Assembly: GCA_905178155.1 (NCBI GenBank)
Contig: CAJINV010000001.1
Location: 2,470,089 to 2,534,088, forward strand
Direction: 5' to 3'
Length of the DNA stretch: 64,000 nt
Source: Amoebophrya sp. A120
Lineage: Eukaryota > Protista > Dinoflagellata
The notes under the pieces are model-generated. The model worked only from the letters and a program-made list of their open reading frames with translations, ran no database searches and had not been told where the DNA came from. Made by a program: the position numbers and the translations under genes. Of the stretch, positions 9,791-59,871 are shown in pieces; positions within the stretch are counted from its first letter, which is position 1; each line of letters opens with the position of its first letter.

Positions 9791-12700
9791 TCATGCGCGG
9801 AACGCGAATCGCCAGGAATCCGTCCGGTTGATCTGCTGCTGCGAGGTGGCAACGCGACCTTGCTCCTCCGCGGCCGCCCGCGCGCCGGCCTTGGCAGCGT
9901 AGTTCAACAACGCTTCCAGTTCGTCGGGCGAGGGCTGGTTGTTCACCTGCGACTTATTGTTCCTGGATGCCCCCGCGTTATAGTTCGCCGTAGTGGTCGA
10001 CTTGCGCGTCAAACTGAACCGCGACGGCGACCGGACCCCTTCGTCGTTGTTTACCAACAGCGTCGGCAAACGAGCGTTGCTCTCGTACTTGGACGGCCCG
10101 CGGACCGGGGAAGCGATGTTCGCATTGTTCGCGAAGTCGTCCATTTCTCGCGTCAAATCCTGTTTCGGGATGTTTTCCACCGCGTTCGCGAGAATGGACG
10201 AGCGCTTCTCCGCCGGGTACAGCTGCGCGCAGATCTTCAACAAATCGTCCACGGAGGGTGGCGCCCCGCGCGGGTCCGAAATGTTCGTCTGCAGGTCTTC
10301 CGCGGTCGGCGCCGAAAAGTCCTTCAGCGGCGGCTTCTTGTGCTGCTTGTGGTGCGACGGCTGGTGCTGTTTGCGGTTGTCCTTGCGCACATGTAGGAGC
10401 TTGCTGTCATGAGCGATTCCGGTAGTTGTTCCCGGTTTCATATTATTGTTCTGCTGCGTGGGTTCGTACAACTCGGCTACGGCCGCCAGCAGCACGGTCG
10501 AGGACACGGGCGGACTTGCCGTCGGCGAGGACACGATTTGCGACACCTCGCGGTCGTGCGCTTCAGAGACCAAGGACAGCAACTCCTCCACCCCGGCATA
10601 GTCGAGCTCATCCAGCGTGGAGGCCCGCTCCACCTCCATGGTGTCCGTGCGCGCCTGCTTCCCGAGCATCTCCTGGCGGTGCTTCACCATGTAGAGCAGA
10701 TCCTGCTCGGAGCACTGGTAGTTCTTCCCCGCAAACTCCTGGCCCAACTTCTCCGCGCGCGCCTGCTGCGCCTCCTGCAGGGCCACCTGTCGCAGCAACT
10801 GCCGGCACGTCTTCAGCAGATCGTCGGAGAACGGCGGGTTTCGCGACTCCACCAAATTCGTCCTCTTCGCGATTTTGTCCTGCCCGAGGGAGACCAAAAA
10901 CGGCGCGCGGCTGTGCGGACGGAGTTCCCACACCTGCAGGGTGGACGTTGGCGGGACGTAGGAGGTTTCGTGCCCCGGCGCGGGCTGGGCGGCCAAGTAC
11001 CCGCAGAGCGACAGCAAATCGTCCACCTGCGGCACCGGCTCGCCGCTGTGCTGTTGGGTACTAGAAGAAGTATGTTTGTCCAGCGTGCCGACGTAAAACT
11101 CGTTCCCGCGCGTCAGCACGTACGGCGTCCGCCCGTTCTTCCGGATTTCGTACACAAGCAGATCGTCTTTGTTTGTTTCTCCAGCACTACTGCTCATTTT
11201 CGACACCCGATCCGCAACTTTTCTGCCCAGGTCCATCTGCATTTGCTGTTCCAGTCGCTCTTTTCTCGCCGGAGACGCCGCTTTCTCCGCGGCGCGGTGG
11301 ACGAGTTTGTGCGACAGCTCCGAGCACATGGCCAGGAGCTTGTCCACCTTCTGCGGCTTCCGTCCCTCCCGCTGCTGCCACTCCGCGCGGAGAGAGCCTA
11401 CCGAGGTGATGCCGTTCTTGAACTCGTTGCCAAGCGACACCACGTACGGGACCCGGCCGGTCTTCCGGATGTGGTACACCAGCACGTCCTCGTTCAGGTG
11501 TGCGGGACGCAAGTCCGTGTAGTTTGTGGTGTCCTTCTCCGGCAGCTGCGGCCGGGCCTCGCGGGACCGCCCGCGCCGGATCCGGGTGCCGGCGGTATCC
11601 GAAATGTGTTTCTTCAAGTGGTACCCGCCCGCGTGGTCGAAATTCGGCGTGGTCTGAGCGAGGGGCTTATTCTTCGTCTTCTGAGTTGTTTGACCCTTGT
11701 TGTAGTTCTCGTACACGGCTGCAGTTGTATCTGCTGGTTCCACTTCTTTGCTCGATTGCTGTTCGATGGACAAGTCGTTCAGGTTTTCGAACTTGCCCTG
11801 CAACACCTCCTTCTCCCACCGCATCCGGAAGCGGCGCGCCGTGATCCACTGATCGCGGCGGTCGCGGAGCAGCGTGCGTGCGTGGTCCATCTCCCGGCGC
11901 ATCACGCGGAACAGGTTCTTCTTGGTGTTCTTGGTGTGCACGGTGCGGTGCGCGTACTTGACCCCCCGGATCTCGTCCTTCGTGCGGTTCCACGGGGAAT
12001 CGTGGAGGTTGTTCAGCTGCTTGGTGTTCACGTGGATGTTGTTTATCAAATGTAAAAATGTCTGGGTCTGGAAGATTCTGAGATTTGTCATGCATGTTTT
12101 GCATGACCCAGGATGTCTGTAATGCACGACCGCGCATCACAGATTTTGAGCGGGCTTCCCGATGCCTACTGCGCATGACAAACGCCCTCCCCGCGTAGCA
12201 CAAACTCGACTCCTCTTGCTGGTCATGCAATACAGATTTTTCTAGAGTCCAAAGTTAGCATCATAAGCTTGCATTCCTCCAGACCCAGACATTTTTGCAC
12301 TTGATATTGTTCGCCAAATACCCATAGTCCTCGTCCTCCATCGCATACATTTGCTGCTGCTTGGACGGAAAGCGCGGCTTCGCGAAGATCGTGTCCGTTT
12401 CGGGAGAAAAGAAGTCCACATCGTGCAGAATGCCCGGCAACCCGTCCGCTGACCAGTCCAGGGCAAACTCGAACTTGCCGTCGGCTTTTCGCCCGCCCCA
12501 CGGGAGACCGTGCGTGCTCCAATCCAGCACCAGGGGCTCCCATTTCGCGCTGATACAATTTGATTTTTGTTTTTCTCTTGGGTGGTGCTGGATAATTCTG
12601 TTTTTCCCTCCTGCGCCTGCCTCAGAAGAATGATGATATCAGGCTCAGCTGAACAAAAATGCAGCTCAGACAAAAATTTATAGTCGATGAAGTCCTCTTG

Positions 12701-15700
12701 AAACAAGAACTCTCGAAGACCACTCAGCATCAATTTACTAAAACGTACCTCTGCGTGCTAACCGGCACTCCGTTGCGGTTCCAGTCGATCGCCGTAAACA
12801 TATCTGGTTTCTCCCCGACCGCCTTCCGGAAGATCGGCGGCAGCCCCTTCGCGGACCAGTCCACCACCGGGCTGGTCCGCACGTCCCAGTCCCCGTGGCG
12901 CTTGGTCTGCTGCATGATTTTCGGCATGCCTTTCCGGGACCAGTCCACCGGGAGCAGCCACTCCTCGTCGACTTCCTGGATTTTGCCGGGGATCCCCGCA
13001 CCGCTCCAGTCGATGGCCATCTCCCGCGGCTCGAACGGGGCCGCCTTGATCTCCATCGGCAACCCCTTGGCGTTCCAGTTGATCGCCTCGTAGAAGTGGC
13101 CCCGCTGCGCCTGCACGCCCGAGTACAGGCCGGTGGGACTGCGGGTCAGGTGCGCGATCACGTTCGGCACCGCATTTTTCAAAGCCCAGTACCGCATGTT
13201 CGCGTCCGGGTTGTAGCACTTCTTCCCGTCGTGCACCATGGGCATCACCTCCCCGTCCTTGCTCCAGTCGCACCGGCACTCGAACTTGTACCCGTTGGTG
13301 TGGAACGAGGCCACTTCCATGAAGAACGGCAGGCTATCACATGCAAAAATGTCTGGGTCTGGAAGAGTGGAACTTGTAATGCTGTCTGCGGATTCTAAAA
13401 ATATCTGTGTTGCATGAGCAGCAAGAGGAGTCAGTTCTTGGCACGCGGAGAGGGCATTCCTCATGCGTAATTAGCATCAAGAAGATATCAAAAAATATGT
13501 GATGCTAGCACCAGCATCACAGACCTCACGGATCATGCAAAATGTGCAACATAGATACCAAAACGCCCCCATGCAAAATGTGCATCACAAGTCCCGACTC
13601 TTCCAGACCCAGACATTTTTGCAGTTGATACAGGCCGGCGTTGGACCAGTCGATGGAGTACGGCCGATCCTTGTGCACCGTCTTCCGCAGATCCACCCCC
13701 TTCTTGGCCCAGTTGATGTAGGAAATCTCCTCGGTCTGCTTGAACACGTACTTCTTCCCCTGCACGAGCTTGATTTCCTGCGAAAAGAACCGCCCGGGTT
13801 CCTGGTTCTGGATCTTCTGCTGTTTTGTCAAAGGCTTGGCGCACTTGGTGATGCGCGCGGGAGAGATCTCGCCGTCCTGCCACACGTAGGTGTCGACCGT
13901 CTGGTACTGGGTTTTCTGGCCCCAAATGCGGTTCTTCCGGAGGTTAAACTTCATCGCGCCGGAATCGACCGTGCGGTCGACGGAGTAAGTAATCGTCATG
14001 TCGGACAAGGAGCCGGCCTGAAGGGGGGGGGATGGAGTTTGAACATTTGAACTTGAAGTGATACCGATGTAATGTAGATCTGGATCCGAGACGACCACAT
14101 AAAAAACGCCGAGTCTATCTCGTTTTCCCTTTCTTGCACGCAAAATCCTAAAACCTAGATAGCTTTGACTTTTCGACATTCAGGTTAACCAACGTCACGA
14201 AATCGCACTCCATAAAAACATATATACCTGTCCCCAATCGATGGTCAAGTTGTCGAACACGCTGGTGTCCACCGGTAGGCCCTTACCGGAAAAGTCTGCG
14301 GAAACCGGCTCTTCGTACATGTCTTTGTAATTACCAACCAGCACCGGACTTTCGAAGCCCGGCAGCTCGACCCACGGCAGCTGCGGCTGACTCCAGTCCA
14401 CGGTGAGCAGCTTCGGCCAGCCGCGGGCGCGCTTGGCCTGTTTCCGCTCCATGAACTTGGCGTAGCTGTAGGATTTCCGCCCGATCGCCCACTGGTCGCG
14501 ATCCGTCGGCAGCTTCCCGACCCAGCCGAAGGGCACGCCGTCCTGGCACCAATCGATCATCAGCGTGTTCTGCTCCTTCTTCCGGGCGGCCTGGGTGACT
14601 TGCTCAAACAAGCAGCGGGGGGACCCACTCGCGCTCCAGTCGATTGCGAGCTCGTCGTACACATGTTTTCGGCCCCGCAAGCACATCCAGGTCTCGTGGT
14701 GCCGGAAGCAGGGGGGCATCTTCTTCTTGCCGCAGTTCGCCCAGTCAATCATCAGTTCCGGTTCCTGCTTGGTACTACTCGACTTTTTTGCCATCGCCGC
14801 GGACCCCGGCCGGGTCAGCGCCTTCGGCACGCCGGCGTCACTCCAATCCAACTGCGCTGACCAAAACATGTCCGCCTTCTGATCCGGCGACAGCATCGGG
14901 CTCTTGTGCGTGATCTCCATCTTCTTGACGTTCTCCGGGGTCGCTCCTTTGTTGAACGCAAGCAATTCTTTCACAATCGTCGGATTCATCTCGGCGGAGG
15001 CGGCAATCTGCTCCGCGTGCGAAGCCTTGAACGCGTCCTCTGCCTTGTGCCGACGGACCCTGAAGGTTTATTTTCGAGGCACGATAAATTCTTCATTTCG
15101 TAAATCTTGTATCGATTTTGGTTTTGCATAGCGAGGGTGGTGGATTGACTTTGACATCACGTCGGGATCGGAAATAGTACCAACGACATCATTGCAAATG
15201 CAAATCCGAACAAAAACCACGCACAGGAAATAAAGTACTCGTGCAACTGGTGGTAGGCACTGTTGACTTCCTTCAGCAGGTCGTCCACTTTCGGCACCGG
15301 TTTTGTATCAGTGAAATGCTTCGAGTACACGTCAATCTTGGTGTCGTGCCCGACCGAAATTTCCCACGGAATCCGGCCCTTCGGGGTGCGCTGGATCACG
15401 TCCATCTTCTCCCCGCCGTAGTTTTCCATCGGGTCGTCCTGTGCGTCCAGGGCCTTCGGACGCATATCTGTTTTGAGAAGACGGTATTATGGATGATCTC
15501 GAACCTAAAGCTGGAAATAGAGTCAGAACTTTTGATGCTCGTAATCTTCTTGAGGTGCCTACTCGTTGCCTCGTTTCTTTTTGTCATTCTCATTTAATTT
15601 CAGCAGCATAAAATCCTAAAAATCAATCCCAAACCTATACCTTTCGACACAGTTCTGCTTGCCGCCGGCGAGGTGTTCGTCTCGAAAAACCCATTTTTGA

Positions 15701-18700
15701 ACAAAGTAATCGTGTTGCTTCCCTTCGGCGACGGGACGAATTTCGTGCCAAACTTCAGGCTCCACTGGGCGTGCTTGATTTCCGGCGGAATTCCCGATTT
15801 TGTCCAATCCAGGCCGGTTTCCGAGTTCAGTTGCCTCTTCCCGAAGGGCGCGCCCTTCCCGCTCCAGTCGACAGCACTGTAGATCATTTTTTCGTCGTGC
15901 TCGGAATTATGCGTTAACTTCTGGAATTCCCCGGGAAGCCGCTTGCTGACCGACCAGTCGATCAAGGGAACGCCCATGGTCTCCGCGAACGGGTCGCGCT
16001 TGGCGTCTTTCGTGAACTGGCCAGGCAGTCCAGTTTCCGTCCAATCGAACGCAAGTTCGCGGTCGTAGAGGGAGCTTTTCAAAAAGCTCGGGATTCCTGC
16101 ACTGGACCAGTCGCACGCTCCGCAGTACTCGTCGTTCTGCTTCTCTTCCCGCGAGCGGTACTGTTCCGGCACGGACGCGACGACAAACAATTTTCCCTCG
16201 TACTGCAACGTGTCACCGAGAACGGCGTTGGTCATGTTCGCCGTTTGCCCAAACGTCTGCTTCAGCAAGTAGCCCCGCTTGTGCACGAATCTCGACTTCT
16301 TCGTCTGCAGCATTTTGTTCATCTTCCGCTTCTTTGCCGCGGGGGCCTTTGAAGTTGTTTTATTTCCCTTATTTTCCTTCTTCGTGGGCACGTTCAGCAC
16401 GGCGTTGTGCCACAGCTTCTCTTCGTTGTGCATCTCGACCGGCGCCAGCGGTCCGTGGACCGCACCGCGGATGCAGTTCCGCACCAGTTCGGCCCTCCGG
16501 TTCGGCTTGGCCATCAGGTCCTCCACGCAACCGGGGAGTCCCGGGGCGCTCCAGTCCAGAATGATCGACTTGTTGCGGTACCGGGCCTGGCCAAAGTCGA
16601 AAGGGACGCTTTTCCACACCGCTTTCCGGAGGAGCTTCGGGAGGCCGGGAGCCGACCAATCCAGGGTTTTTTCCTCGTATTTTCCCTTCACCGGGAAGGT
16701 CTTGGACTTGAAGGTCAGCTGCATCGTAGAGGGTAAAGTCGTATGGATTGTAAAAATGTCTGGGTCTGGAAGGATGCAAACTTGTGACGCATACTTGGAT
16801 CACACAAAAACCTGTCATGCTTAGACAGCAAAGGGAGCTCCTTTTCCTGTCGCGAAAAGAAGGCGTTTGCCATGCGGATTAAGCATTGGGAAACCGTCTC
16901 AAAACCTGTGATGCTAGGCCTTGTATGGCACACTTTCCGTGTCAAGCAGACACAGCATCACAAACCTCAGCAATCTTCCAGACCCAGACACTTTTGCACG
17001 TGATAGGTCGGGTGGTGCGGTTTTGGGATGCCGGAAGCCGACCAGTCGAGCAGGACGCCGTGGTCCCAGTAGGTGAGCTTGATCGGCAATCCGGTTTTGC
17101 TCCAGTCCAAACACACGAGGTCCTTCGTCGCGACGCCTTTCGGCTTGTTCCTTCTCTGGCCCACCTTGAAGACGCTCGGCATGCCGTTCGCGCTCCAGTC
17201 GATCGCGACGGGGCGGTCCTTATGCATTGCAAATATGTCTGGTTCTGGAAGAGTACAACGTCTGTCATGCATATTTTGCGTGGCCCTAGGTGTCTGTGAT
17301 GCATGCCCTCGCGTCACAGACCTTGTGACGGCTTTCCGATGCAGATGCTGCATGAGAAATCAAATTCCCCCTCCGCGTAGCAAAAGTGAAACCAAACTGT
17401 TACGCTGGTCATGCAATACAGAGTTTATGTGGAATCCAAAGGCAGCATCACAAGTTTGCACTCTTCCAGACCGACCAGACATATTTGCACTTCATAGTCC
17501 TTCTGCGGCTTGAAGCTGACCGCCGCCTTCTGGATCAGGGAGGGGATCCCGCGCTGCGACCAGTTATGCACTGCAAATATGTCTGGGTCTGCCCGATTGC
17601 TAGACTTGTGATGCATGTCTGCCATGCCTCGATACTTTGTCATGCATGTCTGCACGAATAAGGGGCCCTGCTCTTGCCTGTCATGCAAGAAAAACGCAGT
17701 TTGCCATGCGTATTCCCGAAAAATACGCAACACATTATAGCAGCCCAGAAATTTGTCGTGCTTGGCTGCGTATTGAAGTGCGCCTATCATTGACTTTTAG
17801 CATCACATCTTTCCAGAGGATCCAGACATTTTAGCAGTTGATATCAGTCCAGCTGCTCGAGTTTTGACCACAGCTGCTCTTCGTCGATCTGGACATTATA
17901 GTTCTGCATCTGCTCGACTTGCCGGTTGCCGTTCTGAAGCGAAACGTTGCTGGACACGTTCAGAAACAGCAAATTGTTCGAGCCGCCATTTTTACTGCTG
18001 GGGGTCGACGGAGCTCCCGCCGCCTCGCGCGTCATCTGGCGAGAGACGTGGAGCGAGCGGTAGGGGGTGTCCGGCATGGAGGGCGCGGCGGTCGAGGGGG
18101 TGGTAGGTGTATGGAAGCGTCAGGTTTGAAATCGACAAAGTTGAAAGAATTTCATCTCATGCATAAATTGCAAGGCACGAAGTGCCTCTCTTGCAGGGAT
18201 GGCAAGCGGGACCGACTGTCAGCCTGTTTGGGGTCTGCGATAGAGCTGCTGAAGTAGCATGACAAAAGATGACGCCTTCTGTCTCTAAACAGCATGACAG
18301 ACTTGATTTAGACGGTGCCGAAATTTGTCATGCACCGCTTGAAAATTGGGCTTCCCACTGGTGTCGATTTTATGCATTACAAGTTATTTCAACTTTGACG
18401 ATTTCAATCCTGACGCTTCCATAAGGAGAATACATCCCGTACTTTCCCATCGGCGTCCCGATCTTGTGCTTCTTCGAGGAGGATTTCATATTCGTACCGT
18501 TGCTGTTATTCTTACCCTTCCTCGACCGCTGAATGACGCTGTTGCTCGAGCTGGACGAGGTCAGAGACAGCAGGTTTTGGTTGTGGAGATCGCCCGCCAT
18601 GGGGGATTATCAAATGCAAATATGTCTGGGTCTGGAAGAAGTCAGATGTTTGTGGTCATGCAGCTTCTGCATCTGCGCGGAGGTCTGGAATGCACACAGA

Positions 18701-18973
18701 GCATGAGAAATTCTTGGGAGGCTTATTCATGCCTAGCCCGCATGAGAAAAGCCCCCTCGCACAGAAAAAAAGCGGCTAACTTTTGCTGACCATGCAACAC
18801 AGATTTTTGCCTGTTCCAGAATTCGCATGACAAGTTTGGATTCTTCCAGAACCAGACATGTTTGTTTTGGATAGGGATCGACCGTACTGGTCCGGGTACT
18901 CGTAGAGCGGGGGCACGTAGTTCTTCTTCGTCGCGTAGACGCCCAGGCCCTGGTGCTCCAACGGCATCGCCAT
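9791..18973 (-). CDS. ~2,142-aa, 12-exon hypothetical repeat protein (~28 DWSxxGxP motifs plus VDDLL and IRKxGRxPY repeats)
   Basis: Seven TIR introns plus four GT-AG introns (12550-12748, 14018-14227, 15060-15238, 15468-15640) join the ORF fragments in frame. The spliced CDS is 6429 nt from the ATG at 18973 (gcgaaaATGgcg). Confidence 0.75.
12044..12306. mobile_element. Introner-like TIR element, family A
   Basis: TATCAAATGTAAAAATGTCTGGGTCTGG...CCAGACCCAGACATTTTTGCACTTGATA, flanked by DR TTGTT. Removal gives YLANN|IHVNTK. Confidence 0.92.
13335..13630. mobile_element. Introner-like TIR element, family A (interior inverted relative to the 12044 copy)
   Basis: TATCACATGCAAAAATGTCTGGG...CCCAGACATTTTTGCAGTTGATA, DR CAGGC. 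Removal gives DWSNAGL|PFFMEV. Confidence 0.92.
16742..17005. mobile_element. Introner-like TIR element, family A (interior inverted relative to the 12044 copy)
   Basis: TATGGATTGTAAAAATGTCTGGG...CCCAGACACTTTTGCACGTGATA, DR AGTCG/GGTCG. Removal gives HHPT|LPSTMQL. Confidence 0.88.
17221..17496. mobile_element. Introner-like TIR element, family A
   Basis: TATGCATTGCAAATATGTCTGG...CCAGACATATTTGCACTTCATA, DR GTCCT. Removal gives KPQKD|RPVAIDWS. Confidence 0.9.
17565..17843. mobile_element. Introner-like TIR element, family A
   Basis: TATGCACTGCAAATATGTCTGG...CCAGACATTTTAGCAGTTGATA, DR CCAGT/TCAGT. Removal gives EQLD|WSQRGIP. Confidence 0.88.
18110..18423. mobile_element. Introner-like TIR element, family B
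   Basis: 37-bp TIR TATGGAAGCGTCAGG(T/A)TTGAAATCG(A/T)CAAAGTTGAAA, DR AGGTG/AGGAG. Removal gives GMYSP|TTPSTAAPSMPDT. Confidence 0.88.
18608..18873. mobile_element. Introner-like TIR element, family A
   Basis: TATCAAATGCAAATATGTCTGGG...CCAGACATGTTTGTTTTGGATA, DR GGGAT. Removal gives QYGRS|PMAGDL. Confidence 0.9.
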
Positions 18974-20682: not shown

Positions 20683-22608
20683 CTACGACTTCAAATCCAA
20701 ATCGAGTAAGTCTTCGTCTCCCTTTTTTAACACGGGATCCGACACCCCCGCAGTCGCTGCCAGGGGCGGTGGCGGTGGGAGGTCGGTTTTCGGCGCGCTA
20801 GCCTCTTCCTTCGTGCCGCTCACTATGCCGCTTGCGTCCACGCCGGCTTCTTCTGCTGTAGTCGCACTTGATGGCGCCGCGTCTCCTACAGGATCAGCCT
20901 CCGCTCCCTCTCCACCCTCAGCACTACTCCCGGACGCCGCGGCCCAACCCGCGGGCGCGTTGGTCTTCCACCAGCTCTTAGTTTGGTCTACAGTGCCGGA
21001 AAACCAGTCGGTTGTCTTGCTCCACGCAGCTTTGCTGTTGGTCACAACGTCGCCCTTAATCTTCTCCGCCTTTTCGCCCAATTTGTGCGTTTGGTGTAGG
21101 GTGAGGACGCTACCTGGAAATACAATGTTGAGGATTTCGAGCGCTGGTGAACAAAACGAGTCAAGTTCCAGCCTGTCCCTACCTTGAAGCCTTACTTTTC
21201 AAGAAAACGATGCAAAAAGCATCCATCCGCACGGGTAAGTTTTTTTGCGATTATTTTTCGCAGTTTTTGCCGAGGCCACCCCAAAACGCCTCACAAATGC
21301 CATAAGTTGTTGCAGAATCTTTTCAGATTTTTCCTCGCGCTGTGTTTAGCAGCGCAATTCTGCCTACCCGCCACGGCGTTTACCCTAAGAGTTTCAGCGG
21401 GGTCGACCGTGGGGAGGGGCGTTAATCGATATTCCCATTCCAATTAATCGATATCCATTCCGACTGCAATTACTAAGTAGCAGAGGAACTGCAGATAGAC
21501 AATGTGAGTAAGTAGCTATGCATGATTCCCATTTCAAATAATAAACTGACACAGGTACGAACGTCCTCACTCCAAAGGTGCACAAGTGCGACACCTTCAA
21601 CATGGCAAAAGCCAAACACTTGAACGAAACAAGTACAACGCCGGGCAAAGCCCTCGACCCGGCCCCTCCGGGGGCCCGCTATTTCTCTGCTTTTGCGTCC
21701 TTTGGGGCGTTCCGCGGAAGGCGCCAACCCTGGAAATATTACCCGCGCGAGCCGGTCTGATGTCTCCTGTGCCCTCCACACAACGCTGGCGCACGGCTTA
21801 CTGTTGGCTTCAGACCGCAAGAAAGCAGATAACAGACAGTAGTACCTTTCACCGCAATCCCTAAAGCTTCCGCTTTTGCCACTACCGTGGTGTCTGCATT
21901 GTTTTCCGGCGCGGTTTGTTTTTTCATCTCCTCCAGCTGGGCCTTCAGGAACCGTTGCCTTCGAAAATACTCCGCGGCGCCCTGCAACAGCTCTTCCGAT
22001 TCAGGTAAGGAGGAGTCTACCAGGTTGACGTACTGCAGCGCTCGATGGTACTGCCGGATCGCGTCCTCGAACTGCTTTCTGTGGGGAGAATAAATAGTGA
22101 TGGCTCTTGCTAGATTTTGATCTTTAGCAGGCATGCATCAGCATCACTAGCACTACCCTTGACTTCCTTGCCATGGCAAGAAAATAGCGCAAGCAACAAG
22201 TGAGAACAACAGATCCTGATGTAGTTTGCACAATACATGATCCGATTGTCGAAGTCGATCGCGGCCGCCACAGCGCTTTTTGCGATTTTGCACTGTTCCT
22301 TGTGGTATCAAATGTAAAAGTGTCTGGGTCTGGGAACTTGTAATGCTAAAAGTGAATGGTAGACGCCCTGCAATACGCAGTTATGCATGACAAATTTTTT
22401 GGCTCCCATGTCTTAAGTATTCCGCACGGCAAACTGCGTTTTTGCATGACAGGTAAGAGGGCCTTTTCGTGCCTATGCAACACAGATTCCCGAGTCATGC
22501 CAGACAAGCATGGCAAACTTGCATCCTTCCAGACCCAGACACTTTTACAAATAATATCGGGTCCAGAACCCGAAATTGGTCCTCGTTCAAATCCACAAGG
22601 TGCGCCAT
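20683..22608 (-). CDS. MIT-domain-like protein, multi-exon (one TIR intron; middle exon structure uncertain)
   Basis: MAHLVDLNEDQFRVLD|HKEQCKIAKSAVAAAIDFDNR...KQFEDAIRQYHRALQYV...AAEYFRRQRFLK matches the MIT three-helix pattern. A phase-1 GT-AG intron 21114-21845 joins it to ORF 20683-21081. Confidence 0.55.
22306..22556. mobile_element. Introner-like TIR element, family A (degenerate end and DR)
   Basis: TATCAAATGTAAAAGTGTCTGGG...CCCAGACACTTTTACAAATAATA, DR TGTGG/TCGGG (3/5 match). Removal restores the MIT frame. Confidence 0.82.
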
Positions 22609-23222
22609 CTTGTGTAATTGGTACACAAACGTCTGCTGCATAAAACCCGGGGGCTCTCTTGCACTTCTTTCGTCTCTCTGGAAGGAGAAGGACCAAGTAG
22701 GATCAGCACAAGAAAAGCGGATACTGGATGAGGATCTTCTGATGCAGGAGCTAGAGCCTGAGCCACTTGTTCTCTCAAAAAGGAATAGACATCAGAGGAA
22801 CAGATATCGGTGCCTACCAACGTACTGGCCCTGTTGTTTTCTCACTCACTGAAGGTGGCGCGCAACAGTCACACTCACAGGTTCGCATGCATACGCGTCG
22901 TTCAATACAGGCAGTACAGGGGCAGTCTCATGAACAGTGAGATCTTCGCGTTCCTTGCTATAGATACAGGTTTTTTTTTCTTGGAACTGCAACAGCGTAT
23001 TTCAATCTTCTAAAAATGGATACAGAATCTGAGTGATTTGAGATACACTACAGTACGTATGTGCAAAAACGGATTCTCATAGTTTGGTTTTCATTGAAAC
23101 GATGAAAAGTGAAACTTACTACTAGTGACGACAACTATAGTAAAGCCATTCATTGTACAATAGAAATAAAATTTTCAGAATATTAATCTCCCTCCTCACA
23201 GCAGGCCCTCGCCTGAAATTCC

Positions 23223-26200
23223 CTACCCGCCCACGTCCGACTGGTCACCCCCGCCCCCGTGGCTTGATTTTCTCGCCTTGGCATCTGCATCCGCTAGCGC
23301 CCGGTTCGGATCTCGGTAGGTGTAGAAGACGTAGATGTAAATCGCATCGGCCAGAATGTACATCAGAAACGCGAACCGAAACGGCAACCCCGCCGCGAAT
23401 CCCCTGGCGGTCGGATCGAAAAGCAAATTCGCGTACAGGTAGCAGCCGAACGCTTGAGAAATCTCGCTGGTGAGAGAAAAGAAGGAAAGGCACATTGCAC
23501 GCTTGTCCACAGGAAGACGCGCCGCAATGAAGGACGAGCTGTATTTCGTTTAATCCTATTTTCATATACGTTGGCAACGCTATGAGTACTTTCTTCAACA
23601 CTTATGCTATTAGTACAGCATGTTAAAAATGTCGGACAGAGCAAATTGCAACACCATGATCACAGAAAGACGATCTTGCTATCCCCAATTTTGATATGCA
23701 ATAGATACCGTATGCTCGCCAGAAACGCCAAGCAGTGCCTGATGATGTTCATGAAGACGAAAAACCGTCCGGAGTACGGCGCTTCCACCGTGTAAATCAA
23801 CTCGCAGGTCAAGTTGATACAGCACCCCAGGATCAGCAAACTTGCGTACCTTTCGTGCAGGGACGTTTCCGCTTCGCTGAACCGATCTGCGTGCGAACTG
23901 GACCAGTGATCGTCCGACACGGAATGCCGCGCCAAGGTGTTCAGGTTCGGCAAACTTCCAAATTTTTTCCGCGAAAACCCCCACGACCCCGCGGCGCCGG
24001 GTAGGCTGTTCCTTCGCAGCGCGGGTTTCCTGCTAGAACTGCCGGCGCCCGGCGGGCTCAAATCAGACCTAGTACTTCGCGGCGCACCGCGCGCAGACAT
24101 CGAACCGTTGCCTCCTTGAAGATGCTGAAAATGAACCCGGGGACGCGCACGTGGCTTGCTGCCATTCGCGCCGTCGTGAAACAGGCCACCAGCACCTTGC
24201 TCCAGATCATCCTCGTCCGCTGCTTCATTCTGCGGATAAACAAACCCGCCCGGGGAACTACGAGAGGAGTACAACGGAGCCAATCCGTGGTCTTCTAGCA
24301 GGTCCGAGTCCCGCGTTTCATTCGGGTCTTGTTTGGAGACGCGGCGGAGTTGCTGAAACGCTTCCTGTTCCGGCTCTTCCGTGGGGCCCCTGTAGTTCTG
24401 GTCTTTGGACGACTTTTTCATGATCAAACCCGCTGCGGTGGAAGAAGTTTCTTTCGAACTTTTACAACTCTGCTGGATCTTCCTCATCGCGACTGCCTCT
24501 CCAGCGACTTCCGGATCGACATCAGTAGTTCTAGACGTCGTTGTACAACCTGCAGATGATAAAGGTTCCGAGTCTCCGTCCGGGTAGAACATTACGATTT
24601 GCCCGGCCGATTCCGTCCCTCGGTCGTCCCCCACCGGATCGCGTAGGGGTGCTTCATCACTGCTGTTCACGGAAATTTGAATCACGTTGCGATTTTGTCC
24701 GCGCGCGCTTGAAGTTCCGCTCGGCGCGTTTGAGCGAGCGGTTGAAAGTGGAGACGTTTGTTGAGCGATGGCACCGTCTATCGCACTACTCCCCTTCACC
24801 ATTCCGTCACTCAATTGCTGGTGTTCGATCTGGTTTTGTTGTTCCTGATGGATGTTCAACCTGGTGAAATCGTAGTCGTCTTCCGGGGAACTCGAAACAT
24901 TCAGTGCGTACTTCTCATTTTCCGCGTCGTCGAGCAGAATCACCTTCACTTTCCGCTTCCCATCCTTCCCCCGCCGTTCAATCTTCCGCAAGTTTCCGTA
25001 CAAAACCAGAGGGGCGGCGCAAAGCGCCGCCAGGTTCACGACCATCATACAAGCGGACATGAACTCCAGATCGCCCTGGTGCCAGTTCCATACCGCAATC
25101 GAGTAGGAAGAGGTGATCTCGCTCATGCAGGTCGCCAACGTGATATGAGAGTGCACAAGACCCCGTCCTCCAGTTCATTTAATTATACCGCACGAGCAGC
25201 AATACAGGCATCGGCAACAATGCAGATTTTGCATGATAAATTGGTGCGGCGCTATTTCGGCTGCCAGGAGAACCTGTGATGCAGATATGGCCAAGAGGCT
25301 AAAAGTGGACCCGGTGCCTTGCATGACAAATGAGGGGGAGTGGCAGTTGTGCACTCTCATACGTGAAAAAAAAGCACTGCACCGTCCAGAGCTGGATAAA
25401 GTTGCTGGATTCGAGGAACTATCAACTGCAAAAATGTCTGGGTCTGGAAGAATTCATGTTTGTCATGCTTGTCTGGCATGGCTCTTAAATCTGTCATGCA
25501 CGTTACCCAAGAGCTCCGTCTTTCTGTGCTGCAGAGCCGCAGTTTGTCATGCAGAATAGGCAACACCTGGGAGCTTAGAAACTTGTCATGCTGAGCCACC
25601 ATTTGTAGCCTCATCATGACACGCCACCCAGCATGACAAGTTTCCAGACCCAGATATTTTTGCATTTGATAGGAACAACTTCACGTACGCGTTGAACATG
25701 TCGCCGAAATAATTGGTCCACGCCACGACGTCGTAGAGGGCCCTTTGGCAGCAATTCATACGTGATCGGGTTCGTTTCAAAACCAACACGCCTTTGTTGC
25801 CCGTTGCTGTACTAATATCGTCCGCGCTTGCACTAGAGGGGCGGAAACTGCCGTCGCCGGAATTATCATTCGACGTCGTCCCGAAGACACTCAAGACGGA
25901 GGAAAACACTTGCGACACTACGCTGGTGCTGTCCGAAAGGATCGCCTTCTCAGCCTTGCTGTCGTCCCTGGAGATATTAATAAGGTTAGAACTATTTATT
26001 CCGTCAGTATTGTTCATCTGGACAGACGAGCTCCTTTTTGTGGTCGTGTCGTCCGGGGAAGTATTGTTCTGACTCGAAGCTGCAAGAACTTCTTGATCGC
26101 CGTACGATTTGTTCGCGTTTGGACGCCACCGGGAGTAATGTGATGCAAGAAAAAAACTGTGTGTGATGCAGAAATTTCAAAACAGTTACACTTGTCATGC

Positions 26201-29200: not shown

Positions 29201-29261
29201 GAACGCCATCGCGGCAGCGCGCGGCGTAGGCGTGGGGACCGGTGCCGTAGGTTTTGGGCAT
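23223..29261 (-). CDS. Major facilitator superfamily transporter (~1,725 aa) with very long low-complexity loops; 3 TIR introns plus 1 GT-AG intron (23539-23708)
   Basis: Motif A FGVLCDKKGRKYML, many hydrophobic helices, and IR|SSFIAARLPVDKRAMCL near the C-terminus. The spliced CDS is 5178 nt. Confidence 0.78.
25144..25361. mobile_element. Introner-like TIR element, family C
   Basis: TIR TATGAGAGTGCACAA...TTGTGCACTCTCATA, DR CGTGA. Removal gives QCFFFT|LATCMSE. Confidence 0.88.
25420..25671. mobile_element. Introner-like TIR element, family A (interior inverted relative to the 22306 and 49365 copies)
   Basis: TATCAACTGCAAAAATGTCTGGG...CCCAGATATTTTTGCATTTGATA, DR GGAAC. Removal gives YVKLF|LESSNF. 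Confidence 0.92.
26142..26347. mobile_element. Introner-like TIR element, family D
   Basis: (G)ATGCAAGAAAAAAACTGTGT...ACACAGTTTTTTTCTTGCATA, DR AATGT/ACTGT. Interior is the approximate reverse complement of 57357-57566. Removal joins TRHA to YSRWRPN in frame. Confidence 0.88.
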
Positions 29262-33320: not shown

Positions 33321-33494
33321 GTTCCGAAAATGTTAATACTTGTCGCTTCAGAATCAGAATCAGAAAGGTCTTGGCTTGGCTTGGCTGCGGGGCGGCGTTC
33401 CAGAACTTTAAGAGTGCAGCTCGAGCTATTCATGAGCTAATTCTTGACCACGCTTACTAGTTTTAGTAGAGGCGGCTAACAGCGAACTTGTCCT

Positions 33495-48900: not shown

Positions 48901-50608
48901 TAGTAGTCAAGAAGTCCTCTACTTCTGGAAATGGGACCACAGGAGCCTGTCCGCGAAGAGCTGCAGCGGCATCGGAGGTTTTTGACTCGGCTTCCGCCGC
49001 AGTAGTGCCCGCCGCGGCAGGAACTTGTTCCGAAGGTATATTCCTGTCGTCCAGATCGCCACCATCAACTGCATCTCCTCCTGAATCAACAACATTTCCG
49101 GCTTCGCCTTCTTCAACAACAGGATTCTTCAGGTTCTCAACTCCTTCCTCCCCATGCGAGAGACTTGTACTGGTTTTCGACAGCAACAAACCAGGCTCCG
49201 CAATCCCTGACGCGCCCGTTTCTCCAGCGTTGGTAATATGCACGTACCGGTGCGCCGGTAAACTGGTGAACTCCTCCCGCGTCTGCACTTCTTCCAAAAT
49301 GCGCTTGCTGACGACCTTCTCCGCGACCTCTTCGAGCGGCGAAGACGACATCATCACGGCGTCATATGCATTGCAAATATGTCTGGGTCTGGAAACTTGT
49401 GATGCAAGGAAGGAAATAGCGACCACACTGTAATGCGCTGCCAAGCATGACAACTTTTTTCGTGGTTCTAAGTTGCGTACTCCGCATGACAAACTGCGTT
49501 CTTGCATGACAGACGAGAGGAGCTCTTTGAGGCCACGCAAGACAGAGTCCAGAGTCATGCCAGACTAGCATGACAAACCTCGCAATCTCCCAGACCCAGA
49601 CATATTTGCATTTGATACGTCAGGGTGGAGAACTTCTGCTTGGTCACTTCTTGGAAGCACCGTTTCGATCGCGGCGGTTATGGAGTCCTGCTCTGGTTCT
49701 TGTGCCACTGCAGCGACCATGGCGCCCGCAAGAGGAACCACCTTCTCCTCTGGGACGATCGTTAACGACGGAGAAGATGTTGCTCCGGCGACGACAACCC
49801 CAGCTGCTGTTACATCTGGATTCATCTCCTGTTCATAGTCCTCCTCGAAAAATTCTTGACTTGTTCTGTGTCTTTCCCGCCCGAAACTCTTCCGCTTGTC
49901 CTCTGCAGCGGGAGCTGCGACGAGAATGGTGTCTGGATTCATCTCTTGCTCATACCCATCGTCGAACTCTTGACTGTGCGGCCTCCGGCCTTCTCGCCCG
50001 AAAGAACTACTCTGCCGTCTGTTCACATACAAACCGTCTTGAAACACCACAGACCCTTCATACCGCGGAATTACGACGGGTTTGATATTTCCCCCATTCG
50101 CATTTCCGACTTTCACCTTCTCGCCGGATGAACTACTGCGCTGCTTCCGAGACCCACGCTTGCTCGACGTTCGTGAAGATGTACTAGTTTGTCTCGACGG
50201 CGGAGCATTTAGTACCCTGGGAGAATCCACGTAGATGCCGTGCGTCTCTCCGTGGTGAGCGTGCGGATGATCGTGCTCATAGATCCCGTCCGGAACGTTG
50301 TCATGCCCGTGCCACCACGGACTTGCATGCTTTTTCCTTTCGTCTTTTGCGCCGGTATCAACATCCTGTGCTGCTTCTGTGTCTTGCTCTACTGCATTTT
50401 CGTGCCCATTGGCATCTGGATCTCTTTCTCCCGCCTGCTCACCGGCTTCATCAAGCCCCTCTGGGGCAAACAGGAAAACCGGTTTTGTCGCGCAGGCTGG
50501 AACTCCACCGGCTGTCTCTTCGTCGCCGTAGAGCAGAGCCGAGCAAGACTTTCGTTTCTGCCGCAAAACTGGTACCTTCGAAAGGTTCACTTGCGATTGC
50601 AACCACAT
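45995..50608 (-). CDS. Large low-complexity/coiled-coil hypothetical protein (~1,450 aa), one TIR intron
   Basis: ORFs 49565-50659 and 45995-49558 join in frame after removal of the 49365 element (HPD|AVMMSS). Start codon uncertain. Confidence 0.65.
49365..49617. mobile_element. Introner-like TIR element, family A
   Basis: TATGCATTGCAAATATGTCTGGG...CCCAGACATATTTGCATTTGATA, DR CGTCA. Confidence 0.92.
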
Positions 50609-53900: not shown

Positions 53901-56900
53901 AACCGTATCGCTTGCGCGAGAGAATCTGCGAGGTTCGTGAAACTAGCGAAGCGGTCTTGCGCCTGCTGCTTTTCAGCGCTTCTAGTATCTCTGTTCAGAA
54001 AGTACGCGTCCCCCTTCTGCTGCTTGAAATCTTCCCCGTCCCAGCTTTTCAGACAGTCAACCGCGTTCAGGGCCCGCAGAACATGCCGGCGGTACCGCGC
54101 CGGATGCTTGCACAGCAAGACGTTTTGATTCGCCGACAAGTTTTTCAAATTCGGAAAAGCGGAGAGGCTCCCGGAAGGCAGCGCGGAAAACCTGTTGGCT
54201 GCGAAGTTGAGCGTCCGCAGGTTTGGGGCGAACAGGGGCAGGATTTCACTGAGTTCGTTCTTCGCGAGGTTCAGCTCGTACAAGCTGGGCAGAAATCGCA
54301 GCGAAGCCTTTTCCGCACGTCCAGACCCGATGCGGTTGTTTTCCAGATTTAATTCTTGCAAGCACAGAAAGAGCAAGTGTCCGATGGCCGCGATCTGGTT
54401 GTCGGCGAGATCCAACGCTGTCAAGAAGGGCAACCACCGGGAGAGCAAGAGTCCTGGAACTGCTTCAAGAGCATTTTTGCTCAAATCCAGCACTTCCAGC
54501 GCTTCGCAATCGCGGAGAAAACAGGTTGAGTCCAGGTTTTTGATTTTGTTGCTCCGCAGCACCAATCGCGACAAAGACGCTTTGCTCTGGCCGGTTGCTT
54601 CCGGCACCTTCTTGATCAGGTTGTGGCCAAAGTTCGCGGAGGACAGTCGCGGGCACCCGGTTTGCAAAAAATCAAAGTCCTTCAAAAAGTTGTGACTCGC
54701 GTCGACCGTCGCCAGGTTGACAAGCAGTTGCAGGCCGTTGAGAGTGCGCAAACCGGTATTGCGAAGCACGATGTGCTCGAGCATGGCGCAATGGAGGGCG
54801 AGTTTCTTCCCGACTTCCACGTCGGTAGACAAGTCTACGTTTTCGATCTGCAAAAACCGGACGTGGCGGAAATTGGTCAATTGGAGAGGTTCATCTTGCA
54901 ATAAATCTGTAGCTGCAGCGATTCTCAAAGCTAGCTTATCGTCGTTGCTGGAGGACTTTTTCTTCATCGCGGCCTTTTCAACATCTTCTGCTGCATGATT
55001 ATCCAAGTACGTCTTCCAGACGGCTACTGTGGAATTTTGGCTTTCGGGTCGGGGTCCGTTGATTTCTATTTCTTCTCTCCCCGGCGGTAGAGCCGGCAGT
55101 GCACCATTGAACAGAAGGGTTCCGCTATCCGTGTGAAACGACTTTATCGACGATCGCTGTTGGTGAAACACGTTCTCAGCAACCGAACGCACGACCCGGT
55201 CAGCCACGCGCGCGACGCGCTCTTTCACACGAAAAATCTGCGACCAGAAATCCCGGCTGAGAAATTTTGTGAAGAAAGAAGAACTTGTTTCCGACTTTGC
55301 AGCTTCTTCAACAACCTCATCCTCGAAGAACAGCTCATCCACACTGGAGCGCCCCGTGCTTCCTCCGCTGTTTCGCGGTGAGTAGTGACAGCGGTCGCTG
55401 GTCGGATGCGCAGCAGCTGCGTCTTGGTCTTGCCCCACCTGCTCTCGTCGTGCACGACCACTTGCGGAGCAGGTGAACTCTCGTTCTACTTTCCACGTCG
55501 CAGACAGTGCCAACCAGGAGTTCCGCCCGTTCCGTTCCCACAGGCCCATCCCTGGTTGCAAGATCTCGGCAATCCCAAACCGCGCATCCGCGTCTTCCGC
55601 GGCCATGCCCGGCCACTCGACAAAAATTCGCTTCTCTTGCTCCCGGAGCGTCGCGGCACGCAAATCCTCTTCCCGCATGCGGTCCTGCTCGCGCCAGGAG
55701 TAGATGTTGCAATTTCTCGCCTCTTCGTCCGCGATTTCCATCAAAACCCGCTCCCTTGCGCAGTTTTCGGATTCTCGCAAGTCAAACGCGGCAAAATCCT
55801 CCTTCAACATCTGTCTCCACTCGCGGTGCAGTGCTTCCCGCGTCAAACGCTGTTCCTCATCTCGCTCCCACTCCCGTATTCGCCCGGCCGCGCGATCTTC
55901 AAACGACATCCGACTGTGTTCCGCTTCTTTCGCTTCCTTCTCCTCTTGCTCCCGCAATCTACTGTCGGTGTCCGCGGCGAAAAACCGGGCTTGCTCGTAC
56001 TGGACTATCCTGGGAAAAAACGCCCCCACCCTGTAGTTAAGATTGGAAATCATGCTATACAAATCAAAAAGCTTTGGCTGTTGCGCATCACAAGTTTGGC
56101 CTCGTAGTGTAATCCTGTTCAGCTAGTTCACCAGCATCACAGATCTAACATATCACGCTGATTGGAGCATCACGAATTCCGAACCATGACCAGAAAATGC
56201 TTCCCATGGGGCTCCGCATGAGAAACATTTTCAGCATGCAGATTTGCATTACAACTATGGGTTTGGGACGTCTTTACATAGGATATGGACGCGACGGAAC
56301 TCCTCCTCGCGACTTCTCGCTTCCGCTTGCCTTTTTAACCGCAGTTCCGAAAGTTTTTTTTCCTCCTGTGCCTGCTTCTCCCGGAGCTGCTTCTGTTGCT
56401 CGGCTAACTTTTCGGTCAGTCCGGGGTCGTATGTAATAATTGCTTCGTCTGTTGTCCTCGTGCTTTCTATTTCTTGTTCTCCCCGTTCGCGAATGTTCGT
56501 GTCCTGACCATCTGCAAGAAAAGCGACTGGACCTGGAGCGAGAACAGGAACAGTACTCCGCGGCAGGGCCCAGAAACTTGTTTGATCCTGGTCCGGAATT
56601 TCCTTGTCCCGTTCCAAGGGTCGGCGCTGGATCTGGGCCACGTACCAGGGTACTAGCGATTTTTCCGTGTTATCATGATCCCCACCGGCTTGTTCTGCAA
56701 TTGTGTCCACGTTCAGCTCGCTTTCGTTTGCAGAAGAATTCTCCCCGGAGCCGTGGTCGCCGGCGGTATCCGCGACGAAGTTCTGGTCATGATTTTCGTG
56801 GTCTTGGTCCCGACGCTTTTCCTTCCCAAGCAGTACTTGCTCTTCTGCCGGCGCTGGTAGAAAAGCATCATCTTCTTGCGCTTCTTCCGGCTTTACATCC

Positions 56901-57675
56901 ACAAGAATTTTTCCTGCATCTTCTATATCTTCGCTCGTCGTGGCGCGTTCAACATTTCGCTGCTCTTGCGCCGCGGCAAGAACAGCCTGCTCCTCTTCTT
57001 CTGTCAGCTCTATCCTCTCTGGCCACGCGACGACCGGCACGGTTTTGAAGAAATTCTCCCGAAACACCGCGGCCTCGTCCTTCGTAAAGTCGAAGAGCTC
57101 CACGGCTTCCGCCAGGGCCGTCTCGATTCTGTCCTCGGAACTCTTGACTTCGTACTTGGCTTCCAGTCCAGGGACGGTAATATCTCCCGCCCGTGGGTCA
57201 AACCGCTCAGCAAAACCCAACTCGGCGAACGCAGATTGCAATTGCTGTGCGGCGTCGAACTTGTTTTTTGGAGTGCTTCCCTTACTGCTGCTTTTTTCAA
57301 CATGATCGTCGTAGTTGCGGATATTGGCCAGGCGCCGGTAAAAAGTTTCGGCGTCTTATCCAAGAAAAAAACTGTGTTAGTGTAGGTCTTTTAGGAAAAC
57401 AGCATCACAAGTTTGTCTGCCATGACAGGAAAAACTTGTCATGCCCAGATAGAAAGGGAAAACACGTAGGAAGCGAGCCTATCATGCATGTGGAGCATGA
57501 CAAGGGTAACTGTTTTGCATACTCTGCATCACAGACGTACACTTACACAGTTTTTTTTCTTTGATACGTCTTCTTCCTCCTCCTCAGGAATGTCGTCGCC
57601 CATCGCTGCGAGCTCCCGCTCCAGCTCGGCAGCGAAATCCATTGCGTCATCGAATTTGTCATGCTGCGCAGCCAT
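50983..57675 (-). CDS. Leucine-rich repeat and IQ-motif protein (LRRIQ1-like, ~2,020 aa); 2 TIR introns plus 1 GT-AG intron (51384-51513)
   Basis: About 10 LxxLxLxxN repeats, IQ motifs ASTKIQTCYRG and ASIIQRWYRGHRIRRK, and an acidic/coiled-coil N-terminus. The spliced CDS is 6063 nt. Confidence 0.8.
56006..56285. mobile_element. Introner-like TIR element, family E
   Basis: TATCCTGGGAAAAAACGCCCCCAC...GGGACGTCTTTACATAGGATA, DR TGGAC, interior colinear with 37061-37340. Removal gives FRRV|QYEQARFF. Confidence 0.9.
57357..57566. mobile_element. Introner-like TIR element, family D
   Basis: TATCCAAGAAAAAAACTGTGT...ACACAGTTTTTTTTCTTTGATA, DR CGTCT. Removal gives EEEEED|AETFY. Confidence 0.9.
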
Positions 57676-58248
57676 AGCTCGTTCTTTCCCACGGTTATTT
57701 AGTTCATGTACAAGAGCAGAGGAGACAAAGATCTACACACAAAGAAGGCAGTTCATCAAGTGTAGTTGTCCGATTGAACACGAATACATTAGCCTGTGTA
57801 GAAGTTAAGTTCTCTCCCAGACTGCTCTCAGTATCGGTTCCTCGCTCACGAGCTCGAGAAAGAAAAACGCCACTTTGGTGAGCCGAATTTCACGCTCGTC
57901 GCCTCTACTGAAGTCGATAAAAAATTCTATAAAATCTGAATGAAAAATCTCTGCAGGTACACGATTACGATGGGGATGATTCGTTTGTTTGGCTGGAAAA
58001 AAATACTGCCCGCCGCCGCCACGACGGCGAGGCATGGTTATCGCACACGGGAGAGCTCAAGCATCTTCGCACACGCACACTGACAAAGCAAAGGCTCTGT
58101 GTGTCAGATGAGAAAAGCGACGGGAAACGCCAACATGTAGATTGCAGCAGCAGCAACAGGACCGCTCGACATCATCATCATGGAAATCCTACAATCAGGC
58201 GGACAAAATCAATTTACATATAGCCACCTACTTTATTCATCAATCTCT

Positions 58249-59871
58249 TTACGAGAATCGTACAATTTCGCTTCGTACAGGCAAAACAGGGTGCTGCAGC
58301 CGTGGAGGGGGCATCGCCCTATCGCCGCCCCCACGCACCATGCCCGTCCGGGCAGCGGCCTCCCGAGTGACTCGCCCAAAGCCGAATTTTGACGGCCGAA
58401 TTCTTTTTGGTCGAAGGTCCATCGGCTGCACTGCATCAGAAACCATGACTCCGCGCTGGGCCTGATGAATTTCATTTTCATTGTTTTTTGTGCTTGGCAT
58501 CATAGTGAATTGTATTTCTGTACAACTTATAATGCGAGCCTGCGCTTCTGCTTTATAGATGCAGCTGCAGCAAGCAGGACGATAAAAGAAAAACCACACA
58601 GGATGACAAATTATCACAACTCCTCTTCGCTATAATTCTAGTACCGCTGCTTGGCGGTCGGACATGTATCCCCGTCTGGTTTGTGGAAAGGAGTACGCTG
58701 GGCGGTTTATCAACTGTAAAAATGTCTGGGTCTGGAAGATTCTGACACTTGTCATGCACGTTTTGCATGAGCCCTGATGTCTGTGATGCATGCCCTAGCA
58801 TCACAGATTTTTTGAGAGCTTCTTGATGCCTATTCCGCATGACAAATGCCCTCTCCGCGTAGCAAAAATTGCATTCCTTTTGGTACTCATGCAATACAGA
58901 TTTTTCTGGACTCCAAATGCAGCATCACAAGTTGCATTCTTCCAGACCCAGACATTTTTACACTTGATACGGTTCTTCAACTTGCTATTCGCGGAAACGT
59001 ACGGATCTTCTTTGAAAACATCCTCAGCGTCGAAATTTTCCATCCCAAATCCAAGTCCTCCCCCGTTATTATTTCCAAATCCATTCCGCGCCCCTCTCTT
59101 CCGCCATTTCCTGGTGATTTTCTCCCTTAACCCCGCGAGCTGACTGGATAGCCCTCCGATCGACACCTTTGCGCTGTTCCGGAACCTGCTCGACACTTCC
59201 GGATTCGGTAACACGTAGCAGCACGGCCCCGGGTTCGCCGCTCTGCTATCCTTTTGGAGGGACCCACCGGAGGGTCGGGGGTCGGCGTTGGAACTGCCTG
59301 CGGTGTCGAAAACCGCAAGCTTGGTACTGTTATACTTCAACTTCTCGGCAACGTGGTGCGCGTTACTCCACAGTTCCGTGAAAATCCAGGGATCAACTAC
59401 CGTTTGCTCCAGCAACGTCGTATTTTTGTACCCATTCTGCACCAGCGACAGGTCCTGTTTCGGGAAAGTGTACCCCGCGGAACCCTGGAGATAGGCTGGA
59501 GACTGATGTTGCAATGCTGGTTTTAGGATTTTGGAGCAGTTATCATGCGTCCGACTTCTCCGAGCAGTGGACGACACAGCTATTAAACTGCAATTGTTCT
59601 GTCGTGCTTGTGGCGGGCTGGTTTTCGTTCGTATTGCCAGCGTGGTACTAGTATTCTGGCCGTCAGCACCGCCGGCGGCCCGGTGCCGCAACATGGGCGA
59701 TTCGTGGTTCATGCGAGGAACGACTGCGGAAGCGGGTGCGGCTCCCGGACCAGCCTGCTGACTCGGTCCGCGTCCGCTCGACAGCGCGCGTTCTGCTTTT
59801 GCAAACGAAAACCCGCATTGCGACCCTTTTACAGAGTCGAACTGTTCGCCAAGAGCGGAGCCAGTTGTCAT
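58249..59871 (-). CDS. SHIPPO/ODF3-like (PGP-repeat) microtubule-associated protein; 5' end uncertain
   Basis: GFSFAK, GYTFPK, NPGPCCYVLP, NRPAYSFPQT (after element removal) and PSKFGFG in a probable last exon after acceptor ttcatcag|gcc. Confidence 0.5.
58708..58969. mobile_element. Introner-like TIR element, family A (close relative of the 12044 copy)
   Basis: TATCAACTGTAAAAATGTCTGGG...CCCAGACATTTTTACACTTGATA, DR CGGTT. Removal gives KLKN|RPAYSF. Confidence 0.92.

Follow-up and report, generated by a model that had tools for sequence, protein, structure and literature searches.

The 64,000-nucleotide stretch analysed here (the window; Amoebophrya sp. A120, contig CAJINV010000001.1, positions 2,470,089 to 2,534,088 of the forward strand) carries protein-coding genes whose exons are interrupted by short elements with terminal inverted repeats (TIRs) and flanking 5-bp direct repeats. 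Exons of the window were 100% identical to the Amoebophrya sp. A120 proteins CAD7923419.1 and CAD7923420.1, and a further model, CAD7923418.1, found for gene A by a profile library search, maps exon by exon onto window positions 18973-9794. An earlier note on this DNA had described 17 such elements of 206-314 bp in seven genes, between 12044 and 58969. When the window was scanned for inverted repeats with flanking direct repeats, all 17 were recovered at those lengths and in seven genes, but an 18th was found at 7324-7654, outside that range (Table 1).

The ends of the elements are highly uniform. We found TAT at 35 of the 36 ends, as the note had claimed, with the transcript-3′ end of 26142 (ATC) as the sole exception; in transcript (minus) orientation, 18/18 elements begin with TAT and 17/18 finish with ATA. 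The full motif TAT-N7-AAA was present at 30/36 ends, and 18110 and 25144 were without AAA at both ends. The proposed 5-bp direct repeats are perfect in 12 of the 17 elements but imperfect in the other five, which gives 13 perfect and five imperfect repeats among all 18; four of the imperfect ones (16742, 17565, 18110 and 26142) match at 4/5 positions and 22306 at 3/5. Eleven copies form a main family (about 67-85% identity where alignable), 37061/56006 and 26142/57357 form pairs, and 7324, 18110 and 25144 each stand alone in the window. With TIRs, a 5-bp duplication, lengths of 206-331 bp, stop codons in the host frame and no coding capacity, the elements have the features of miniature inverted-repeat transposable elements (MITEs), and judged by sequence they are likely non-autonomous DNA transposons. 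Related copies lie in both orientations within the window. The transposon-like origin put forward earlier is supported. A terminal stem was predicted for the elements, with folding z-scores of −1.9 to −12.4 for the 18 elements versus −1.2 to +1.8 for four normal introns (30 shuffles each). No Rfam family was detected in the window. The sequence TGT[C/G]ATGC or its complement occurs one to five times per element, with 56 of its 61 window matches inside elements; these repeats could be transposase-binding repeats or inner hairpins.

All 18 elements fall within coding ranges, and a relaxed three-motif scan found none outside them and one chance-like match at 21244, in agreement with the claim that they are confined to coding exons. 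The coding ranges make up 64% of the non-element window, so that chance placement would give 0.64^18 = 3.5e-4, a value that is partly circular because the ranges were drawn by hand with the elements known.

We found that, in the three A120 protein models, 11 of the 17 elements are treated as introns and left out, and with each of them goes one repeat's worth of bases. For 3 of these 11 there was also support from contigs of X4, by guess an RNA run; it is one-sided, covering one border of each joint. An X4 contig of 3199 letters was without three GT-AG introns of gene A, and its pieces halted at 16737 and 13631, the borders of 16742 and 13335, while the record continues for 347 and 307 letters. 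Another piece halted at 12038, the border of 12044, with 547 letters further in the record, and an X4 contig began exactly at 7655, the border of the 7324 element. Contigs of X9 entered elements from the flanks, with a summed depth of thousands to >100,000 in element bins versus ~25 elsewhere, which reflects many copies and is not a copy number.

The reading frames gave a further view of removal. Retention of any one element of gene A ended the frame early, and the same was found for the other elements tested. The frame reconnection that had been claimed throughout was strong in general but weak at 58708, where removal adds 24 codons versus 56 if the element is retained. The junction of 22306 is gap-free in the alignment to A25, as are those of 25144 and 25420 in alignments to A25, AT5 and a transcript-derived protein, and at 17565 the motif DWSQRGIP was kept in CAD7923418.1, P0008 and A25; the remaining junctions fall in poorly conserved protein stretches. 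Collectively, these data suggest that the elements, together with one repeat's worth of bases, are likely absent from the mRNA.

Standard splice sites were not available at the borders. None of the six possible cuts of any of the 18 elements gave GT-AG on the coding strand, and 17221 can give GA-AG, both as first noted; U2-type GT/GC...AG ends were likewise found in 0/18 elements in any of the six registers on that strand. An AT-AC intron was possible at 22306 only, the sole case among the 18, and minor spliceosomal RNAs are reported as absent from A120 in the published account of its splicing machinery (PMC7789003); a U12-type intron was rejected.

The analysis was extended to a public assembly (metagenome collection), of which 156 loci matched the end motif; the loci listed among them, at least 80, were all from one whole-genome shotgun set, and no flank of the fetched loci matched the window flanks. 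A strict finder returned 199 distinct elements, 158 of them with an exact 5-bp repeat, whereas repeats of 3, 4 and 6-9 bp were each found in at most 2/199 and repeats of 2 bp in 26/199. A relaxed finder returned 193 elements, 166 of them with usable flanks, and the strand was called for 104 by a codon model trained on the window (minus was called for 17/18 window elements, a partly circular check). An open, coding-like frame was found for 119 of the 166 when one repeat was kept, the test being allowed to pick either copy; the count was 74 when both repeats were retained and 69 when neither was. Exact removal of the element and one repeat, as proposed in the note, is supported by the deposited models, the X4 contigs and the 5-bp repeat length. 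Among the 82 of the 104 strand-called elements with a match to a window reference, 46 had the same orientation and 36 the reverse. Since the mutually reversed elements 12044 and 13335 are both removed, and given this 46/36 split, the removal signal works both ways.

Where the cut falls within the repeat can be described by k, which counts how many bases of the repeat lie within the intron's 5′ end. Four elements with imperfect repeats set bounds on k, on the assumption that they share one value, and two of the bounds come from published models. At 17565, k = 0 would place TGA, which is also gene A's own stop codon, at codon 180, a position that is Trp in the model and in two orthologues; a contig of X7 runs from 17564 into 17849 onward (17/18 letters). 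At 16742, an X4 piece keeps base 16737, the fifth base of the downstream copy. The stop at 17565 and the retained base at 16742 therefore indicate k ≥ 1. The Gln of the model at 26142 fits only k = 0 or 1, though k = 2 would give a GT donor, and the Pro of the model at 22306 fits k ≤ 2. Only k = 1 agrees with all four bounds, which gives a predicted intron of the form N-TAT...ATA-NNNN, and we consider it probable that one fixed register of this kind holds for all elements. Such a register was not found stated in the literature searched; the figures of Farhat et al. 2021, further table rows of Gozashti et al. and Roy et al. 2023 may bear on the register. Stop codons set no bound elsewhere: in the 27 imperfect repeats with flanks from the other assembly, there was no stop in any register. 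In 11 of these 27 the amino acid is the same whichever copy is kept, and the other 16 would be register-informative in transcripts.

Two further border features were set aside. C at the last intron base, present in 12/18 window elements, was found at 35/104 other loci (p = 0.05 uncorrected, ~20 tests) and was dropped as not reproduced. The nine A120 border types in Table S4 of Farhat et al. all have T at +2 and eight also end in A-N (PMC7789003); they were not counted as independent support because aligner preference could produce both features.

We then compared the elements with published ones. According to the passages on introners in Farhat et al. 2021, A120 introner elements have 8-20-nt inverted repeats that begin with TAT followed by N7 and AAA, direct repeats of 3-5 nt and hairpins; 29,850 repeated introns are counted, more than 60% of A120 introns are non-GT-AG and 35% GT-AG, the exon/intron border is described as unknown, and an autonomous transposase for the introners was not found (PMC7789003). 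The window elements lie in the A120 genome, carry TAT-N7-AAA ends and a direct repeat, occur in repeated copies and leave without GT-AG borders. They are almost certainly the published A120 introner elements: genome, motif, 5-bp repeat, length of ~250 nt, hairpin and families agree, and those passages reveal no class difference (PMC7789003). The assignment to Amoebophrya introners made in the note was right, the genome being A120 itself with 11 of the 17 elements already introns in deposited models, and since this is the same published class in the same published genome, the finding as such was already known. Where Farhat et al. call the border unknown or variable, the present analysis proposes one register and counts both orientations (PMC7789003). 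The A120 TIR families of Gozashti et al. 2025, compared by class description over 22 of the 58 A120 table rows, are also short, and some rows carry a 5-base duplication; most of the rows covered are classed as TIR DNA elements without a known superfamily, and their annotated splice sites are mixed (PMC12130899). Family 38 in that table carries integrase-like open reading frames (ORFs), whereas the window elements carry none (PMC12130899).

Similar introns have been described in other lineages. Introns of Fritillaria borealis are also MITE-like, with inverted repeats and target duplication, and are removed with non-GT-AG ends; in that species AG-AC and AG-AT prevail, U1 has been retained and removal was shown to depend on U2, whereas the window elements have free terminal dinucleotides (PMC13326754; PMC11282704). 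Nonconventional introns of euglenids also have an end-to-end stem at fixed offsets, free boundaries and frequent direct repeats, but their signature is N3-CDG...CH′G-N5-6 and circles are reported, as against N1-TAT...ATA-N4 proposed for A120 (PMC12501133; PMC11282704). Membership of the euglenid class, whose signature continues as N5-6|R, was rejected, the window elements carrying TAT/ATA at their ends. Introners of Micromonas and Aureococcus are likewise MITE-like with target duplication and inverted repeats, but they supply or co-opt canonical splice dinucleotides, which the window elements do not (PMC11282704; PMC7789003). The related strains AT5 and Kv have mainly GT-AG introns, by the accounts given in the corresponding reports (PMC12005148; PMC11453091).

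Based on these observations, we propose how the elements may have arrived and may be removed. A putative transposase would have copied them in, in either orientation, duplicating five target bases. In the transcript, the two ends would pair into the predicted stem and bring the splice points together, replacing the GT and AG landmarks, and the cut would obey a single fixed register, lying one base ahead of the first TAT and four bases past the last ATA. TAT would then be read as donor positions +2 to +4 by a relaxed U2/U5/U6 spliceosome without need for the first G or the last AG. Because the elements lie in both orientations to transcription, the symmetric ends are likely the removal signal, and a symmetric signal guided by structure or motif is favoured by the use of both orientations and by the missing GT-AG. 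At k = 1 the introns open with N-TAT, G being the first base in 5/18. Normal donors backed by an X4 contig or by models begin with GTA in 7/7 cases (+4 is T in four and C in three), and eight further normal donors, picked by eye, also begin with GTA. In the best-fitting register, the resemblance of TAT to donor positions +2 to +4 would speak for the spliceosome being reused and against the distinct system put forward in the note.

What is reported of the splicing machinery is relevant here. U2, U4, U5 and U6 are listed as present in A120 (PMC7789003), and U1 proteins, U2AF and PRP8 are entered as detected and snRNP27 as not detected in its Table S6 (PMC7789003). Loss of SNRNP27K is reported to accompany a +4U preference in yeasts (PMC10581693), and the transposon-like non-GT-AG introns of Fritillaria are described as needing the U2 spliceosome, with U6 methylation reduced there (PMC13326754). 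The A25 inverted repeat is given as opening with TTA and two purines (PMC7789003), which would likewise place T and A at +2 and +3. In our judgement a relaxed spliceosome guided by the hairpin is somewhat favoured on the present sequence evidence. The joint proposal, that N-TAT...ATA-NNNN is the cut of all A120 introners, tens of thousands in number, and that the spliceosome responsible does without the +1 G and the terminal AG, with TAT as donor +2 to +4 and an acceptor four bases from the stem, is tentative.

Several points weigh against this proposal. The X7 contig at 17565 belongs to another strain and may represent an allele without the element, the upper bound on the register depends on the single gene model at 26142, and the legend to Fig. 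3 of Farhat et al. 2021 calls splice sites variable relative to the hairpin (PMC7789003). The contig evidence covers one side of each junction, repeat copies swamp the joints in X9, and for the other 6 of the 17 elements the evidence for removal is that of the reading frame. TAT and any branch A would lie buried in the stem, which a spliceosome would need to unwind. We found no strand bias in the damage to TAT ends (among 122 elements, one damaged 5′ end versus five damaged 3′ ends, p = 0.22), and two 3′ ends, in copies outside the window, have no A at the position of the nearest potential branch point. A branch-point consensus was sought in the 3′ end, and TGAT before the last A was found in some copies only, which did not support it. 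U1 small nuclear RNA (snRNA) is given as not detected in the published A120 survey (PMC7789003), and the conservation of TAT may stem only from what the transposase requires.

The same observations allow other routes. The removal could be non-spliceosomal, with a structure-specific nuclease that would cut beside the terminal stem and a ligase that would join the exons. The use of both orientations, the near symmetry of the ends, the free first and last intron bases and the non-detection of U1 snRNA in that survey (PMC7789003) would all suit such a route, and euglenid introns, for which a nuclease-ligase route has been suggested in the reports on them and which leave as circles, also have a stem at fixed cut offsets, 5′-N3CDG...CH′GN5-6|R (PMC12501133; PMC11282704). 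However, a nearly full spliceosome is reported in A120 and must serve the 35% of GT-AG introns (PMC7789003), the 5′ end in the best register agrees with normal donors of this genome at +2 to +4, and no candidate nuclease is in hand, no search aimed at one having been made; we regard this route as the main rival, less likely than the relaxed spliceosome. Removal could also be exact without a single register, the cut sliding within the direct repeat from copy to copy and the four informative copies agreeing by chance. Only four elements bound the register, and each does so from one side; variable sites are described in the legend cited above (PMC7789003), and annotated borders are mixed in large A120 families (gt, at, gc, ga and others) in the table rows covered (PMC12130899). 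Aligner choice inside perfect repeats would yield mixed annotated borders as well, a flush cut at 17565 would put a stop in a conserved motif, and all four bounds agree with one value, which makes a sliding cut unlikely in our estimate.

Removal at the level of RNA was itself weighed against two explanations. Reverse transcriptase can skip hairpins flanked by direct repeats, so that the elements might be missing from complementary DNA (cDNA) only, the genes being dead or the elements read through; strong stems with direct repeats are its classic substrate and all the RNA evidence is cDNA-based. Retention of the elements tested breaks the frames, whereas the spliced proteins keep long frames with blocks common to A25 and AT5. 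Skipping by an enzyme that copies as far as the stem should leave the downstream repeat intact, but bases of the upstream copy are retained in the models at 26142 and 22306; such an artefact is very improbable. Alternatively, the elements could be excised from DNA in some cells or at some stage, like the internal eliminated sequences of ciliates, with transcripts made from rearranged copies, which would fit the transposon-like ends and the short repeat that is left behind as a single copy. X9 contigs enter the elements from flanks of flat depth (~25), a minority of the X9 joints being covered, so that a minor DNA form may exist, and the X4 contig that skips elements is also without GT-AG introns, and we give this explanation hardly any weight.

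The genes around the elements run in one direction: every examined gene in window 1-64000 is on the minus strand, and unidirectional gene clusters have been reported for the A120 genome. The gene A protein contains 25 spaced DW[S/T/N..] motifs, of which relatives of 2320-2368 aa in A25 and another assembly keep 22-25, and Pfam gave no curated-level match in the three modelled host proteins. The gene A transcript ends with ~1 kb of untranslated sequence (8750-9790, minus strand) at a poly-A site at 8750, and raw reads of X12 are confined to this 3′ end, with a depth of ~200-400 per direction and almost none on the coding part, and they yielded no junction; the pile-up at 8750-9790 reflects either 3′ bias or a separate RNA. 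Gene order is conserved, the consecutive A120 proteins CAD7923418-20 matching the consecutive A25 proteins CAD7930203-05 (window 9791-29261). A single long ORF at 34145-35707 (minus) carries an RNase H domain at its C terminus (PF00075, E 1e-9). Minus-strand ORFs without elements encode DUF3431 (31242-33332), a RING finger (3822-4667) and a DnaJ domain (41240-43340).

Table 1. Introner elements and modelled host genes of the window
Feature	Position	Strand	Description
Element	7324..7654		331 bp; single in window; perfect 5-bp repeat; within minus-strand ORF ~8100-6579 without Pfam match
Host gene A	9791..18973	-	A120 model CAD7923418.1, 2142 aa; 7 elements, 4 GT-AG introns
Element	12044..12306		Main family; perfect repeat; removed in CAD7923418.1
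Element	13335..13630		Main family, reversed relative to 12044; perfect repeat; removed in CAD7923418.1
Element	16742..17005		Main family; repeat mismatch at position 5; removed in CAD7923418.1
Element	17221..17496		Main family; perfect repeat; removed in CAD7923418.1
Element	17565..17843		Main family; repeat mismatch at position 5; removed in CAD7923418.1
Element	18110..18423		Single in window; repeat mismatch at position 2 (synonymous, uninformative); removed in CAD7923418.1
Element	18608..18873		Main family; perfect repeat; removed in CAD7923418.1
Host gene	20683..22641	-	A120 model CAD7923419.1, 270 aa
Element	22306..22556		Main family; repeat mismatches at positions 3 and 4; CAD7923419.1 model reads Pro
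Host gene	23223..29261	-	A120 model CAD7923420.1, 1725 aa; 3 elements
Element	25144..25361		Single in window; perfect repeat; in gap-free conserved block (A25, AT5, transcript-derived protein)
Element	25420..25671		Main family; perfect repeat; in conserved block of 25144
Element	26142..26347		Pairs with 57357 reversed (86% over 189 nt); one deviant end; repeat mismatch at position 4
Element	36773..37023		Main family; in alpha/beta-hydrolase gene; frame evidence only
Element	37061..37340		Pairs with 56006 (81%); same alpha/beta-hydrolase gene as 36773; frame evidence only
Element	49365..49617		Main family; excision joins 360 + 1121 open codons; frame evidence only
Element	56006..56285		In leucine-rich-repeat gene; frame evidence only
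Element	57357..57566		Same leucine-rich-repeat gene as 56006; frame evidence only
Element	58708..58969		Main family, 85% to 12044; near ORF end; weakest frame evidence

In summary, the elements are real, well supported and already known for the A120 genome, and no new class is added; what the present analysis suggests is a specific register and the donor-likeness that it implies. These bear on the central question of how more than 60% of A120 introns leave without GT-AG. If a single register is true, the border becomes a rule and gene models can be fixed at imperfect repeats; it also predicts the +1 base, a possible branch location and the excised product, and would distinguish between a relaxed spliceosome and a new system that cuts and joins RNA. 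Furthermore, if the joint proposal holds, any copy is a ready-made scarless intron in either orientation and at whatever site it targets, and this would account for the invasion of this genome.

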